Source: Gemmatimonadales bacterium
GTDB taxonomy: Bacteria > Gemmatimonadota > Gemmatimonadetes > Gemmatimonadales > GWC2-71-9
Length of the DNA stretch: 33,069 bases
Direction of reading: 5' to 3'
Assembly (NCBI GenBank): GCA_025929805.1
Contig: JAICPP010000003.1
Coordinates: 1-33,069 of the forward strand
Shown: positions 24,724 to 30,105 of the stretch, one piece after another
Layout: each line of letters opens with the position of its first letter
Numbering within the stretch: the stretch's first letter is position 1
Notes under the pieces: model-generated
Database searches by the model: none
Told to the model about the DNA's origin: nothing
The model's input: only the letters and a program-made list of their open reading frames with translations
Program-made: the position numbers and the translations under genes

Positions 24724-25428
24724 CTAGAGTTGATCCACGAACCGAGCCGTCTGCTCCACTGCGTTCATGTAGTTCTCGAATTCAGGCGCGGCACACCGCC
24801 ACTCGCGTTCAGAGCGATGGCGTACGACATGTAAGAGATATTCTGGCTCGAACCCGACGAGGGCCGCTGCGGCACCGGCAAGCTCGAGAGCGTCCGGCGG
24901 AACCGGTTTCCCGGCCACGGTGAGGACGCCCCGGAGCAACACCAGGATGGTGGCCGCGCTCTGCAGTCCCAGCGAACCGAGCGCCGCCGGATCTGGAGCA
25001 TACGTGGCATACCCCTGGCGCAAGCGAAGCAGCTTACCTCGAAACTCCCCCTCGAGAGCTTTTCGGAGATCATCCCGGTCCACCTGGACACCCTGCAACG
25101 GGTCCACGCCCCGCAGTACCTGGTAGGAGAGCCGCATATCGGTGATCTCCACCGGAAACGCGTCACTCGCGCGATTCCATTCAGAGTGGCTCAGCACCAG
25201 CGGCGGCTCGGGAGTTTTCTTGCGCCAGCCGGTAAAGGCGCGGCTGAGTGACCGGAGTACGGGTGGCGTCAGTTGCTCTACAACCAGCATCAGGTTGATA
25301 TCCGAGCGCCCGGGGATGAAATCGCCCCGAGCCGCCGAGCCGTAGAGCACGGCGCTGTACCCGTTGCCGAGCACCTGGTCGGCTTCGGCAAGGAAGGGAT
25401 CCACCACCCGGGATACCGTAGCCCGCAT
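24724..25428 (-). CDS. Nucleotidyltransferase-fold (Pol beta-like) hypothetical protein
   Basis: VLYGSAARGDF...SDINL motif followed by a helical C-terminal domain. ATG overlaps the TPM gene stop. Confidence 0.75.
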   Translation of the reverse strand: MRATVSRVVDPFLAEADQVLGNGYSAVLYGSAARGDFIPGRSDINLMLVVEQLTPPVLRSLSRAFTGWRKKTPEPPLVLSHSEWNRASDAFPVEITDMRLSYQVLRGVDPLQGVQVDRDDLRKALEGEFRGKLLRLRQGYATYAPDPAALGSLGLQSAATILVLLRGVLTVAGKPVPPDALELAGAAAALVGFEPEYLLHVVRHRSEREWRCAAPEFENYMNAVEQTARFVDQL

Positions 25429-26282
25429 CAGAACCTTCCCCCTGCACCACCACCGCTGAATCCTCCCCCGCCGCCGAACCCGCCGAATCCTCCACCACCG
25501 CCTCCGAATCCACCGCCACCTCCCCAGCCACCACCGATCCATGGCCCTCCCCAATATACCCGCCCTCTGCGGCGGCGACGGCCACCCATTGCGCCTGACA
25601 TCATGAGCATGAACAAGATGAGAAAGAGGAGGGGCAACAGGTTACCGACGGTGGAGCTGCCGCCTTCGGCATCTACCGGCGGCTGATACGCCGTGAGAGC
25701 GGAGTCCGTGACACCGTACCCCTTTGCAATGACACTGGACAGTGCCCGCACGCCGAGCAACAGCCCGTCTCCATATTGCCCTTCCGACAAGTGGGGCCGC
25801 ATCAGATCACGGATCTGACCCGCGGTTGCGTCGGTGACAATGCCTTCCAGGCCCTGTCCCACTTCAATCCGGATGTGCCCGGAGTTGGGATCCCCCTCTC
25901 GGCGTGGCACCAGCAGCAGCACCACTCCAGCATTGCGGCGGGGATCTCCGATTTCCGCCTGGGCCCCCACGCCCCATTTGCGTCCAATAGCCAACGCGAC
26001 CTGCGCGGCGTCGTACTCGCCGATGGTCGGCAGAATCACCACTGCGATCTCGGCACCGGTCACGCCCTGCAGCCGGCGGATGAGATCTTCCATGTTGCCG
26101 GCTGATGATGGGTCCAGCACTGAGGCGAGATCGTTGACGTAGCCAGTCGGCCGTGCGGGAATCAGGCTGTCGATCCCCGCACGCTGAGCCCACACGCTCG
26201 CAGGAACCACTGCCGGGGCAACCGCTCCGCTAAGTTGAAGCAGTGCCAGGAGAGCGGTAGCTTTGGCTCGTGTCTCCCTCAA
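25428..26282 (-). CDS. TPM domain protein (YgcG-like) with Gly-rich C-terminus
   Basis: GYVNDLA.VL, EIAVV, WGVG, RIEVGQGLEG and C-terminal GGGGFSGGGAGGRF. Start uncertain (TTG at 26282 or 26315). Confidence 0.88.
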   Translation of the reverse strand: MRETRAKATALLALLQLSGAVAPAVVPASVWAQRAGIDSLIPARPTGYVNDLASVLDPSSAGNMEDLIRRLQGVTGAEIAVVILPTIGEYDAAQVALAIGRKWGVGAQAEIGDPRRNAGVVLLLVPRREGDPNSGHIRIEVGQGLEGIVTDATAGQIRDLMRPHLSEGQYGDGLLLGVRALSSVIAKGYGVTDSALTAYQPPVDAEGGSSTVGNLLPLLFLILFMLMMSGAMGGRRRRRGRVYWGGPWIGGGWGGGGGFGGGGGGFGGFGGGGGFSGGGAGGRF

Positions 26283-26320
26283 TCGGTCTCCTGCTGCTGA
26301 CCCCTTCGTCAACATTCAAA

Positions 26321-27749: not shown

Positions 27750-28502
27750 CTAACGAATTGCCAGAATCACATCATACAACGCATGAGTCCAGGCAGTAAT
27801 GCCGAACCCTCGCGAGAGGTACAAGCCACTAAAAAGCAGGCCAGCTACCGTCCGGAAGGTGAACGAGGTGAGTGCCAGAGATTCACCATAGGGACCGATG
27901 TAATGAAAAGCAGAGAAGACGAGGGCACCGAGCACGATCGCTAAGAGATCGGCCGTCAACCGCGTCCAGCGGAAAAGTCGGGTGGCCAACAGGGCCAGAC
28001 CGGAGACCAGCAGTACCCGGAACAGAAGCTCCTCGTAGATACCGGCACCCAGTGAGATCATGAGTTGGGCGGGGAGGCTCAGCTCAACGGCAAGGCGAGG
28101 GATACCCTCGACCGCAGTCGCCACCAACACCAGCGTCGGCAGCAGCAGCACCGTGAGCGCACTCGCCACGAATCCGAAGGCCAGCGCGTATGCAACGGTC
28201 TCACCGGCCATCAGGGCCAAGTAGCGAGGCCGTATACCTCCACGGCGCCGGATGTCTCGCCCCACGAGTGAGGCTCCTCCCCCCACCAACAACAGCCCGA
28301 AAACCGTCAATCCATCCCGACCACCGAGCCCGACGAAGAGGCTCTTCAGCAGCACGTCGGCTCCGTTTCGCACTCCTGCCGCCTCGGCATCGGATAGAAG
28401 GAACGCGAGTGCTTCGTACAGAATGAGCAGAGGAAAGGCGAAGCTCAGGCTGTACCGAGGTTCCCTGGTCTCAGTCCAATAGCTCGATCGTGTCAGACTC
28501 AC
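27750..28502 (-). CDS. CPBP (Abi/CAAX-type) intramembrane metalloprotease
   Basis: GIYEELLFR (EExxxR), FSAFH (FxxxH), HALYD and multiple TM helices. GTG start inferred. Confidence 0.9.
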   Translation of the reverse strand: MSLTRSSYWTETREPRYSLSFAFPLLILYEALAFLLSDAEAAGVRNGADVLLKSLFVGLGGRDGLTVFGLLLVGGGASLVGRDIRRRGGIRPRYLALMAGETVAYALAFGFVASALTVLLLPTLVLVATAVEGIPRLAVELSLPAQLMISLGAGIYEELLFRVLLVSGLALLATRLFRWTRLTADLLAIVLGALVFSAFHYIGPYGESLALTSFTFRTVAGLLFSGLYLSRGFGITAWTHALYDVILAIR

Positions 28503-28530
28503 GGGGATCGCGGACCTCTCGCCATCGCCC

Positions 28531-28558
28531 AAAGAAAAGGGGCCGCTTCCGCGGCCCC
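28531..28558 (-). terminator. Intrinsic terminator (minus strand)
   Basis: Minus strand GGGGCCGC-GGAA-GCGGCCCC followed by TTTTCTTT. Confidence 0.9.
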
Positions 28559-28601
28559 CCCAGGTTCATAGTGTCGCCTGGGTCTCAGCTTGCAGCTCGT
28601 G

Positions 28602-28637
28602 CTAACGGCCGCAGGCGACCCTTGACTCTGTAGACAA
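28602..28637 (-). CDS. Putative 11-aa small peptide MSTESRVACGR
   Basis: TTG start 7 nt after GGAGG, directly after a 13-nt anti-SD-complementary tract. TAG stop. Confidence 0.5.
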   Translation of the reverse strand: MSTESRVACGR

Positions 28638-28683
28638 TGGATCACCTCCTCGGTTGCAGGTGGAACAGGTAATGCGCCCAATA

Positions 28684-28713
28684 AGTGTACTCGGAGGCCA
28701 TACTCAGGATCAA
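28684..28713 (-). promoter_or_regulatory. Sigma70-type promoter for small transcript
   Basis: Minus strand TTGATC (28713-28708), 18-nt spacer, TACACT (28689-28684). Confidence 0.55.
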
Positions 28714-28752
28714 CCCTCTTCCATTGGAGTAGATACCCCGCAACATTGGGCC

Positions 28753-30105
28753 ATGCCTTCCACTTCGCGGTTCTATCGGATTGCAATTCGGATGGGAACC
28801 GCGATTGCTCCCGTGGTGGGCTGGTTCAATCCAAAGATCCGAACGGGCACGCGGCTGCGGCGCGACGCCGGCGAACGTCTGTTGGAGTGGGCTCGGTGGA
28901 ACCGCGATCCTGCCCGGCCATTGGTGTGGTTTCACGCCTCATCTGTGGGGGAGGGCTTGCAGGCTCAAGCCGTGCTTCTCGCCCTCCGCCGAATCCGCGC
29001 CGATTGCCAGATCGTCTACACCCACTTCAGCCCCTCCGCCGTGGACCTGGCCCGGCGCATCGAGTCCGACGTCTCCGACTGTCTACCCTACGATCTCCCC
29101 CAGCCGGTCGAACGGCTGCTTGCTGTTCTGGAGCCGGATCTCGTGGTATTTGCCAAGCTGGATGTCTGGCCCGAGCTGTCCACCAGAGCGGCAACCAGCA
29201 GTGCGCAAGTGGCGATCGTGGCCGCCACGGTGAGTCCCGGAAGCAGCCGACTCCGTTGGCCGGTCCGGCAGCTACTCCAGCCAGGATATCGTGCGGTCGC
29301 GGCCGCCGCGGTGATCTCGCCGGAGGATGGACAACGCCTCGTCCGTCTGGGGGTAGATCGTGATCGGATTCATGTCTTGGGCGATCCCCGCTTCGACAGC
29401 GTGGCCGACCGGGTGCGCAGCGTGAGTCCAGACGAGCCACTGCTTCGCTTCGGGAGTGGCGCGCCCACTCTGGTGGCGGGATCCACCTGGCCGGCGGACG
29501 AAAACGTCCTTCTACCGGCCTTTACTCGCCTGCGGCAGCAACGGCCGGATGCCCGTTTGATCGTGGTGCCTCACGAGCCGACAGGAGAGCACCTGAACGG
29601 ACTGGAGCAGAGCGCCCGCGCTGCAGGCCTGCCCTCGCCGGTTCGCCTGAGTGCTGCCGAAGGCCCGGTCCCATTCCTGGTGGTCGATCGGGTGGGAGTC
29701 CTGGCCGTACTCTACGGCGCCGGGACAATAGCCTATGTCGGAGGTGGTTATGGAGCGGCGGGCCTGCATTCGGTTCTGGAACCCGCCGCGTGGGCGCTCC
29801 CAGTGACATTCGGCCCCCGATGGCAAAACAGCCGTGATGCTGCACTGTTATTGGAGGCGGGTGCGGCGGTTGCGTTGCCCGATTCTGGTGCCGAAAGTGC
29901 GCCAGAGGCACTCCGCGAATTGTGGGCGGCGTGGCTTGCCGATGAAGCCAGCCGAAAGAGCCAAGGACATCGGGGGCGAGAAGTGGTGGATCAGGGGACG
30001 GGAGCCTCGGAGCGGAGCGCCGCCATGCTGGCCCGGCTTATTTCAGGACGACGCCCTCGTAGGTCACCGCCCGCGGCACAATCAACCCGGCCGTCAATGC
30101 GGTGA
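28753..30105 (+). CDS. waaA: 3-deoxy-D-manno-octulosonic acid (Kdo) transferase
   Basis: VWFHASSVGE, LPYD, GDPRFD, VAGSTW, IVVPHE and GGG...HSVLEPA...FGP. ATG at 28753. Confidence 0.92.
   Translation: MPSTSRFYRIAIRMGTAIAPVVGWFNPKIRTGTRLRRDAGERLLEWARWNRDPARPLVWFHASSVGEGLQAQAVLLALRRIRADCQIVYTHFSPSAVDLARRIESDVSDCLPYDLPQPVERLLAVLEPDLVVFAKLDVWPELSTRAATSSAQVAIVAATVSPGSSRLRWPVRQLLQPGYRAVAAAAVISPEDGQRLVRLGVDRDRIHVLGDPRFDSVADRVRSVSPDEPLLRFGSGAPTLVAGSTWPADENVLLPAFTRLRQQRPDARLIVVPHEPTGEHLNGLEQSARAAGLPSPVRLSAAEGPVPFLVVDRVGVLAVLYGAGTIAYVGGGYGAAGLHSVLEPAAWALPVTFGPRWQNSRDAALLLEAGAAVALPDSGAESAPEALRELWAAWLADEASRKSQGHRGREVVDQGTGASERSAAMLARLISGRRPRRSPPAAQSTRPSMR

Follow-up and report, generated by a model that had tools for sequence, protein, structure and literature searches.

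A probable rre-type small mRNA with an extended Shine-Dalgarno sequence in a Gemmatimonadales bacterium

Introduction

On the minus strand of a 33,069-nucleotide (nt) stretch of DNA from a Gemmatimonadales bacterium (contig JAICPP010000003.1, positions 1 to 33,069; here called the window), positions 28531-28713 hold a small element that lies in a 220-nt gap between two divergent genes. What kind of gene is it, if it is a gene at all? An original prediction, made from the letters alone, saw a small transcript with an extended Shine-Dalgarno sequence (SD), an 11-codon small open reading frame (sORF) and a structured 3′ half. It proposed a ribosome-binding RNA, a micropeptide gene or a toxin-like mRNA, and saw in the element a candidate for a novel system. 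The sequence features that it listed are all present on the minus strand (Table 1). The idea of a novel system is not supported: the element belongs by design to the rre-type small mRNAs (for ribosome-regulated expression), a kind published in 2016, one subgroup of which was described as a small RNA (sRNA) in 2008 and is Rfam family RF01867. Here it is found in a phylum without an earlier report. We put at roughly three in four the probability that an rre-type mRNA, small and structured, is made from a gene of its own at this locus, docks on 30S subunits via its SD and behaves as a two-state switch. The anatomy of the element, its conservation, its independence from neighbouring genes, the conservation of its frame and stop codon, and its predicted folds were obtained here.

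The point of reference is rreB of Bradyrhizobium (Hahn et al. 2016, RNA Biol 14:1353, PMC5711450). According to that article, rreB is a 165-nt mRNA that encodes 14 residues and has 17 nt complementary to the 16S rRNA 3′ end, including the first base of its GUG start codon. It co-sediments with 30S subunits, and its translation is weak, owing to the long SD and the GUG start. Decay depends on the start codon, as changing GUG to UAG stabilised the RNA about fourfold, from a half-life of 10 min to one of 37 min, and 20-fold overexpression left growth unaffected. Within the complementary region, the five 5′ bases alone are predicted to be single-stranded, and the 5′ extension is needed for predominant ribosome localisation (17c vs 14c). 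The search of Hahn et al. used a complementarity of at least 16 nt; analogues, among them rreR with 18 codons, occur in four alphaproteobacterial orders, and the authors describe the function as elusive. Our literature search found rre-type genes reported only from Alphaproteobacteria and none for Gemmatimonadota (the supplements of Hahn et al. may list more taxa), and it found no functional follow-up of rre genes, the only later work being three citing papers by a single laboratory.

Results

The 16S rRNA genes of four same-genus genomes end in ...CTGCGGCTGGATCACCTCCTTTCT / CUGCGGCUGGAUCACCUCCUUUCU. Read against these ends, the 13-nt SD is a perfect Watson-Crick complement of the tail, with one G-U pair added upstream. 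The original prediction that complementarity runs beyond a normal SD right up to the start codon was thus borne out. As in rre genes, it extends through the spacer to the non-AUG start of a very short sORF, AGGAGGUGAUCCA abutting UUG. The predicted duplex of SD and 16S tail has 13-14 pairs and a free energy of -26.4 kcal/mol. The 13-mer occurs once in the 3.14-Mb assembly, and its reversed control does not occur. A whole-genome scan for tail complements returned two sites of 13 nt, two of 12 nt and 15 of 11 nt. The window SD therefore ties for the longest tail complement in the genome; the other 13-nt site is embedded in long open frames and is not followed by a start codon.

The prediction had proposed a search of related genomes, and the element is there. 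BLASTN of 28480-28760 against 40 relatives matched 20 of the 24 genomes from the same genus (81-93% identity), and in most of these the alignment is limited to query positions ~85-235, which is the RNA (28676-28530). Alignments of 20 and of 37 genus copies contain an invariant 41-nt core, from GGAGG to CUGCGG. The terminator stem is kept in the genus, with 99% of cells paired, and its loops are variable. On this comparison of sequences, the element is a real, conserved and discrete block.

Beyond the genus, the motif AGGAGGTGATCCANTGTCT (at most one mismatch) occurs in 157 of 401 sampled genomes of the phylum, unpublished genomes G003 and G089 included. It is always single-copy, and the reversed control gave none. 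The counts by family (f1, 78/166; f2, 22/93; f4, 2/7; f6, 23/30; f7, 30/70; f10, 1/13; six other families, 0/21) are lower bounds, as more diverged copies would escape a motif search. We assembled 115 unique elements, 38 from the window genus and 77 from elsewhere. They start with UUG (104) or GUG (11) and never with AUG, under a collecting pattern that admitted only G or T at the first base. Tail complementarity is 12-14 nt in the genus copies and 11-17 nt elsewhere, reaching 16-17 nt in 8 of the 77 other Gemmatimonadota elements.

A similar picture was seen in an order with a Planctomycetaceae-titled record. There AGGAGGTGATCCNKTG is present once in 47 of 121 genomes, with a reversed control of 0 (the count includes unpublished genome G530; the order is that of genome G424, loci L087/L242-L257). 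Sixteen loci were read. In 13 of them a 10-22-codon sORF (often ..DC.KGLH.) sits behind a 'gacggctgg' leader and is followed by hairpins and a terminator. The remaining three are embedded in long open frames and appear to be chance matches in coding sequence. This suggests, from sequence, rre-like mini-mRNAs in a third phylum.

The RNA folds predicted for the element center on a short copy of the 16S tail inside the sORF. In the RNAalifold consensus of 37 genus sequences, AGGUGAUCC of the SD pairs with this mimic, GGGUCGCCU, and UUG pairs with CAA, forming hairpin H1, which is followed by hairpins H2 and H3 and the terminator. By prediction, H1 masks the start codon together with the 3′ half of the SD, and it is also the free fold of the window RNA (148 nt), with a minimum free energy of -63.1 kcal/mol. 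A second stem, P1, which is the stem of the original prediction, joins GUCGCCUG (GTCGCCTG in DNA) to a downstream anti-mimic, CAGGCGAC, encloses a hairpin and excludes H1 and H3; with P1 enforced, the energy is -62.4 kcal/mol. When the 13-nt SD was held unpaired, P1 formed at -54.8 kcal/mol. Over the 37 genus sequences the H1 and P1 folds differ by a mean of 1.8 kcal/mol (standard deviation 3.0, range -5.6 to 8.0), and the two folds are predicted to be nearly isoenergetic. What is new here is that, in these models, a 16S-tail mimic can either mask the SD and start codon or pair with a downstream anti-mimic.

Covariation bears on the parts of this structure unequally. All H1 columns are invariant in the genus, so H1 offers no covariation test, and P1 is either invariant or changes on one side only. 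H2 has compensatory changes at two pairs, 94/106 (CG 23, UA 6, UG 5) and 96/104. H3 varies at one pair (A-U 20, G-U 16), with no two-sided change. Two mini-hairpins and a GNRA-capped terminator had been predicted. One internal hairpin is supported by covariation and the second is not; the terminator is present in the window, and its GNRA loop is not conserved in relatives. In the leader, CCACCU helix 1 is 93% paired with one-sided variation, its fifth pair being broken in 12 of 37 sequences, and folds that do not use H1 pair CCACCU with the SD. A fold that paired the SD with the U tract was dropped as an artefact of the chosen ends, the folded stretch having run past the terminator.

Elsewhere in the phylum, long forms of the element (~200 nt, 14-25 codons) have a near-invariant box, GGGCAAGCGAUCGCC, inside a long enclosing helix that corresponds to P1. 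Within the box is GAUCGCC(U), which closely resembles the 16S tail GAUCACCU; the box is able to pair with GGUGAUC of the same element. Its counterparts are GGGUCGCCU in the window genus and GGGAUCGCC in rreB. In these long forms, all eight pairs of P1 have compensatory changes, and 90.6% of the positions are paired, against 18-49% when the partner strand is slid. The covariation score of 0.555 was exceeded by none of 500 shuffles. Across 72 elements from the phylum, the mean probability of being unpaired is 0.59-0.78 at positions -5 to -1, 0.09-0.33 over GGAGGUG and 0.20-0.28 at the start codon. By prediction, then, the SD and start sit in a hairpin while a few 5′ bases stay open as a seed, as described for rre genes.

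How close is the element to rreB itself? rreB is a stand-alone small RNA of 165 nt with its own promoter and terminator; the window element, at a predicted ~145 nt, is a candidate for the same layout, its promoter-like hexamers and terminator keeping their positions across the genus. In both, the SD is extended through the spacer to a non-AUG start with UCU as second codon, and the very short sORF (14 codons vs 11 here) ends ...A.G.R. Each has, close to the sORF end, a GAUCGCC-type box able to pair with the SD, as well as an enclosing helix, and the predicted open bases lie only 5′ of the SD or at its start. In rreB, however, the 17 nt include the first GUG base, whereas the window has 13 nt and one G-U pair, and UUG breaks the pairing. 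The two come from different phyla and have no detectable sequence likeness beyond the constrained motifs. Binding to 30S, weak translation and start-codon-dependent decay are experimental results in rreB and predictions for the window element. With rreR of Rhodobacterales the element shares the architecture of the ribosome-binding site and the UCU second codon; rreR differs in having 18 codons and an unrelated peptide.

A pattern scan of public genomes returned at least 120 stretches, of which 80 were listed. Among the matches listed, 12 have Gemmatimonadota titles (Gemmatimonadales, Gemmatimonadaceae, Gemmatimonas, Longimicrobiales), 64 are titled as alphaproteobacterial or 'proteobacterium' and one as 'bacterium'. 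The last three are single records, one titled Planctomycetaceae and two, from Saprospiraceae and Lachnospiraceae, with the appearance of ordinary coding sequence. The matches listed also include an rreR-type locus of Dinoroseobacter (L135) and loci of Bradyrhizobium in which MSCLKRCHLAGIAR lies beside a tRNA, the published location of rreB. The alphaproteobacterial and Gemmatimonadota elements alike have a super-SD abutting GUG or UUG, UCU as second codon, an enclosing helix and a terminator, and towards the end of their sORFs they carry a GAUCGCC-like box.

Rfam at its gathering thresholds gave no match in the whole window. A loose-threshold search left RF01867 ('caulobacter sRNA CC2171') as the sole family with meaningful likeness to the window, at 24.6 bits (E=0.003) with a cut-off of 75 bits. 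A match to a described Rfam family, which the original prediction had named among its grounds for refutation, was thus obtained only below threshold. The same weak likeness, 28.6-34 bits, was seen in 4 of 20 distant loci. Sub-threshold matches to ftsZ-DE (plus strand), BjrC68 and PVX_3 were dropped, as they rest on the terminator hairpin only. The RF01867 consensus begins with GAAAGGAGGUGAUCCAGUGUCU and continues, like the window element, into an enclosing multi-branch helix and a terminator; it differs in that Rfam lists an sRNA of unknown function and does not mention an sORF. Northern blots reportedly validated CC2171 in Caulobacter, in work by Landt and colleagues from 2008. Northern validation of the family in Methylorubrum is given in a preprint (bioRxiv 10.1101/2022.01.24.477521). 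At gathering, the RF01867 model recovered Caulobacter, Brevundimonas and Methylobacterium super-SD elements at 91-120 bits (3 of 12 loci pass) and missed rreB, rreR and all three Gemmatimonadota loci tested. RF01867 covers only some of the elements, and the rre kind is thus, as judged from sequence, a set of several families sharing one design, with the Gemmatimonadota elements a further set.

Table 1. Features of the element and the genes on either side of it (window coordinates)
Feature	Position	Strand	Remarks
-35-like hexamer TTGATC	28708-28713	minus	CTTGC kept at the same position in genus alignment A1
-10-like hexamer TACACT	28684-28689	minus	18-nt spacer from -35; TAnAAT at the same columns in relatives
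Predicted transcript, ~145-147 nt	28531-28677	minus	BLAST block of relatives ~28676-28530
Leader motif CCACCU (CACCT 28662-28658)	28658-28663	minus	Upstream partner for AGGUG of the SD
Extended SD AGGAGGTGATCCA (RNA AGGAGGUGAUCCA), 13 nt	28638-28650	minus	Complementary to 16S 3′ tail
sORF, 11 codons	28602-28637	minus	UUG 28637-28635; UAG 28604-28602; peptide MSTESRVACGR
16S-tail mimic (anti-SD box) GGGUCGCCU	28613-28621	minus	Partner AGGUGAUCC (28647-28639); with UUG:CAA forms hairpin H1
Hairpin H2	28592-28612	minus	Stop codon at loop edge; compensatory changes at 2 pairs
Anti-mimic CAGGCGAC	28573-28580	minus	With GTCGCCTG (RNA GUCGCCUG, 28619-28612) forms stem P1
Hairpin H3, CCCAGG/CCUGGG	28559-28582	minus	Present in the H1 ('closed') fold only
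Intrinsic terminator GGGGCCGC-GGAA-GCGGCCCC (28558-28539) and U tract TTTTCTTT (28538-28531)	28531-28558	minus	8-bp G+C stem
CPBP/Rce1-like membrane protease ORF	27750-28532	minus	PF02517; same orientation, downstream
Kdo transferase gene	true start near 28753	other strand	PF04413; upstream

We infer from the sequence that the transcript starts 7 nt past the -10 hexamer and ends in the terminator U tract (UUUUCUUU as RNA; full terminator 28558-28531). Its leader, ~27 nt between the -10 region and the SD, carries CCACCU. The codons after TTG read TCT ACA GAG TCA AGG GTC GCC TGC GGC CGT. A scan of the window for the sigma-70 consensus called no site and missed the element's own promoter because its hexamers score 8 of 12 matches, and a terminator scan of the window did not list the element's terminator. 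The promoter of the original prediction is therefore uncalled by program, and its position is backed by better hexamers in relatives, where CTTGC-N17/18-TAnAAT keeps the same place across the genus alignments. Open reading frames of 95 and 97 amino acids that run across the element were rejected, as they are broken by 1-3-nt indels in relatives.

The genes around the element vary. Downstream, in the same orientation, is the gene for a CPBP-family protease. The other strand carries a Kdo transferase gene upstream; alignments with relatives begin only at residue 33-34 of its ORF, and we therefore place its start near 28753. Of 36 other loci in the genus, 26 have the CPBP gene downstream (one of them in part) and ten lack it, the downstream sequence of one of these ten being only ~470 nt long; at one locus without it (L015), the following gene is convergent. 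Outside the genus, in 28 loci from other genera or families, the CPBP gene is downstream in one (L051) and upstream on the other strand in one. Other families have conserved neighbours of their own, such as a putative HExxH membrane peptidase gene upstream or a convergent thioredoxin-like gene downstream, both read by eye. These counts come from tblastn and a few frames read by eye; clustering of ORFs was dropped because of shadow frames in G+C-rich DNA. With variable neighbours, and with 10 of 36 genus loci lacking the CPBP gene, the RNA is most probably a gene of its own, which stands alone and is not the leader of the CPBP gene.

The alternative is that the element acts in cis, as a 5′ leader and ribosome-dependent attenuator of the CPBP gene, in which translation of the 11-codon peptide would set read-through of the terminator. 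We consider this unlikely. It would explain why a CPBP gene in the same orientation follows at 26 of the 36 genus loci and in one further genus (L051), yet the other ten keep the RNA in the absence of that gene, and 27 of the 28 loci outside the genus have different downstream neighbours. According to Hahn et al., the gene context of rre is likewise unconserved across Alphaproteobacteria (PMC5711450). The CPBP start is only 1-31 nt beyond the terminator U tract (28502-28538 in the window; genus loci L003-L021). This leaves no room for a separate promoter, and CPBP transcription therefore probably comes by read-through or from within the element. An sORF followed by a terminator is also the layout of leader-peptide attenuators. 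In such attenuators a fixed downstream gene and an antiterminator are expected; here the downstream gene varies, and constrained folds show no antiterminator, the terminator persisting or even lengthening with the SD or the whole sORF held open. The stop codon, moreover, is ~45 nt ahead of the terminator stem.

Whether the sORF is translated can be judged from its frame. All 38 unique copies from the genus terminate at codon 12 (TAG 25, TGA 12, TAA 1), and UGG never takes the place of the stop. Of 61 long-form elements, 59 keep the box in a single frame with respect to the start codon (offset 32, 35 or 38 nt), so that their lengths differ by multiples of three. The other two are shifted by one base, one of them having an N and a T6 run. 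The loci were not selected on frame or stop, which makes this conservation real support for translation; the kept frame and fixed stop position, both new observations, argue that the sORF is read by ribosomes.

The peptide itself appears to matter less. The first ten codons are nucleotide-invariant except for two replacements (E to A, R to G) and one synonymous change, while flanking proteins are 59-71% identical. The variable codons, 10 and 11, coincide exactly with the covarying stem positions of H2. Across the phylum the sORF has 11-25 codons and takes several forms: MSTESRVACG[R/C/H/L] (11 codons) in the window genus, MS.D...ARIAGSR (14), MSS.......[R/W]ASDR[R/L]..G. (19-22) and a few more. 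A long form of 20 codons that contains Cys was seen at loci L202 and L203. The box is read as GAU CGC in the long form and as G GUC GCC / G AUC GCC in the window type and rreB. Near-invariant codons, variable codons matched to H2 and a box frame that differs by subfamily show, at the level of sequence, that constraints on the RNA dominate over those on the peptide. The act of translation thus seems more important than the peptide sequence.

This makes it quite improbable that the locus is a plain micropeptide gene, with MSTESRVACGR as the functional product and the long SD merely serving its expression. Such a gene would account for the frame (kept by 59 of the 61 long-form relatives), for a stop that never moves in the 38 genus copies and for the conserved start and second codons, and the RreB and RreR peptides are conserved within their own clades (PMC5711450). 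It would not account for invariance that extends to wobble bases beside flanking proteins of much lower identity, for peptides that vary widely in length (11-25 residues) and sequence over the phylum, or for a conserved box read in differing frames between subfamilies. An extended SD and a non-AUG start also depress translation in rreB, according to the same article.

Conversely, the element could be an RNA that is not translated at all and that titrates or protects the 16S tail, as a 30S sponge, a hibernation-like factor or a base-pairing sRNA, the frame being incidental. The strength of the tail duplex (13-14 pairs, -26.4 kcal/mol), the invariance at the RNA level and the co-sedimentation of rreB with 30S (PMC5711450) would all suit such an RNA. 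We nevertheless think it very unlikely, as it leaves the conservation of frame and stop unexplained, and no conserved single-stranded seed was seen outside the SD, the H3 loop being variable. For rreB, the authors disfavour a simple sponge: growth was unchanged at 20-fold overexpression, ribosomes far outnumber the RNA, and recruitment of ribosomes is in their account not the main function (PMC5711450). Of the roles first proposed, a ribosome-binding RNA and a micropeptide gene thus both fit the rre kind, and it is the simple sponge that is disfavoured. A type I toxin-like mRNA, which would share the small structured form and the masked SD, is hardly credible for a single-copy gene, vertically conserved across a phylum, whose 11 hydrophilic residues are mostly polar or charged with no hydrophobic stretch and for which a promoter and terminator scan of both strands, the only search made, showed no antisense partner.

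Discussion

The reading that we prefer, an independent gene for an rre-type mRNA, implies the following sequence of events. A sigma-70-like promoter would give rise to a transcript of ~145 nt that stops at the intrinsic terminator. In the free RNA, the mimic GGGUCGCCU would mask the 3′ half of the SD and the UUG, leaving a few bases directly 5′ of the SD open as a toehold from which a 30S subunit may open the switch. The 13-nt extended SD would then pair with nearly the whole single-stranded 16S 3′ tail and dock the RNA on the 30S subunit. Once the SD is engaged, the mimic would be free to pair again, this time with the anti-mimic CAGGCGAC, so that SD, mimic and anti-mimic would form a two-state switch. 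The over-long SD and non-AUG start would hold translation of the 11 codons low, and ribosome engagement probably also sets the lifetime of the RNA. Binding to 30S, weak translation and ribosome-dependent decay are expected of the window RNA by analogy with rreB.

Engineered mRNAs with very long SD:anti-SD duplexes are reportedly translated less and hold the ribosome at the start (Komarova and colleagues, 2002). The element would be expected to dock more than it translates because over-long SD constructs of this kind lower translation. Those mRNAs differ from the element in being artificial constructs and not a conserved natural gene with self-masking.

Several points weigh against this reading. 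The window has 13 nt of contiguous complementarity where the search of Hahn et al. asked for at least 16 nt, and its SD is without the 5′ extension found in rreB. The RF01867 score is far below the cut-off (24.6 vs 75 bits). The likeness to alphaproteobacterial genes could be convergent, forced by the common 16S tail, and the counts of UCU codons and of the 3′ part of the SD are circular, as the collecting pattern contains both. In the genus, H1 and P1 are without covariation support, and the switch rests on energy predictions. The short distance of 1-31 nt from the terminator to the CPBP start is a caveat of another sort, as it would allow a local leader role in this genus.

Contigs of four soil RNA runs, from four studies, cover parts of the flanking genes, and none covers 28531-28677. 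These data come from 17 runs listed, 9 of them recorded as RNA libraries, each with a small share of the sequence, and they are no evidence either way for the window RNA. In run X6, a soil metatranscriptome library, a 271-nt contig matches only 28630-28662, which is 33 nt of leader and SD core. Beyond this match it runs into another sORF, with a AAGGAUCGCC box, and so represents a relative's element that is present in an RNA library and may be transcribed.

The CC2171 sRNA dates from 2008 and the rre genes from 2016, both without an assigned function, and it is tempting to look for one that would serve the whole kind. In the sets searched, the rre type occurs in Alphaproteobacteria, in Gemmatimonadota (157/401) and in the Planctomycetaceae-titled order (47/121). 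A tentative idea, which we hold to be rather unlikely, is that the rre-type RNAs of several phyla make up one class of bistable RNAs and sense the state of the small subunit, whether to meter or time free 30S or to guard the 3′ end of 16S rRNA. The switch made of SD, mimic and anti-mimic would be flipped by a free, mature 16S tail, and the RNA would be committed to decay once the mini-frame is translated. The window would then hold the most compact version, at ~145 nt.

Whatever the function, a second phylum, and apparently a third, maintains the design in single copy; its core does not vary, its frame is preserved and its self-masking box is conserved. Such conservation is an argument for strong selection on the docking-and-masking mechanism as such. 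The compact forms (11 codons, ~145 nt) and long forms (14-25 codons, ~200 nt) are comparative material with which constraints on the RNA can be separated from those on the peptide. Cultured Gemmatimonas could serve as a second experimental system; a long-form copy (L149) is present in a Gemmatimonas-titled record.

In four species of the same genus, the native leader of the element has been replaced by foreign DNA with 'ctgaacca'-type repeats (loci L237 and L010/L240 in G006; L238 and L016 in G017; L006/L239 in G008; L031 in G112). The CCACCU motif is absent from the four genus loci with a replaced leader. In G006 and G017, one contig holds the native promoter, the leader and GGAGGTGATCCATTG and runs into unlike sequence, and a second GGAGGTGATCCATTG, with intact sORF and 3′ domain, lies on another contig. 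From its sequence, this 15-nt duplication looks like the attachment (att) core of an inserted mobile element; no integrase was found beside the insertions within the 0.9-1.7 kb examined. In G008, ~2.7 kb that include a PKD-repeat-like ORF lie between the native promoter and the SD. If rre-type RNAs do read the state of the small subunit across phyla, the invariance of the core would explain why GGAGGTGATCCATTG serves as an insertion site for mobile elements in some relatives.

Elsewhere on the minus strand of the window, an ORF of 295 amino acids at 25428-26315 has a hydrophobic segment followed by a long glycine-rich tail (GGGWGGGGGFGGGGGGFGGFGGGGGFSGGGAGGRF).

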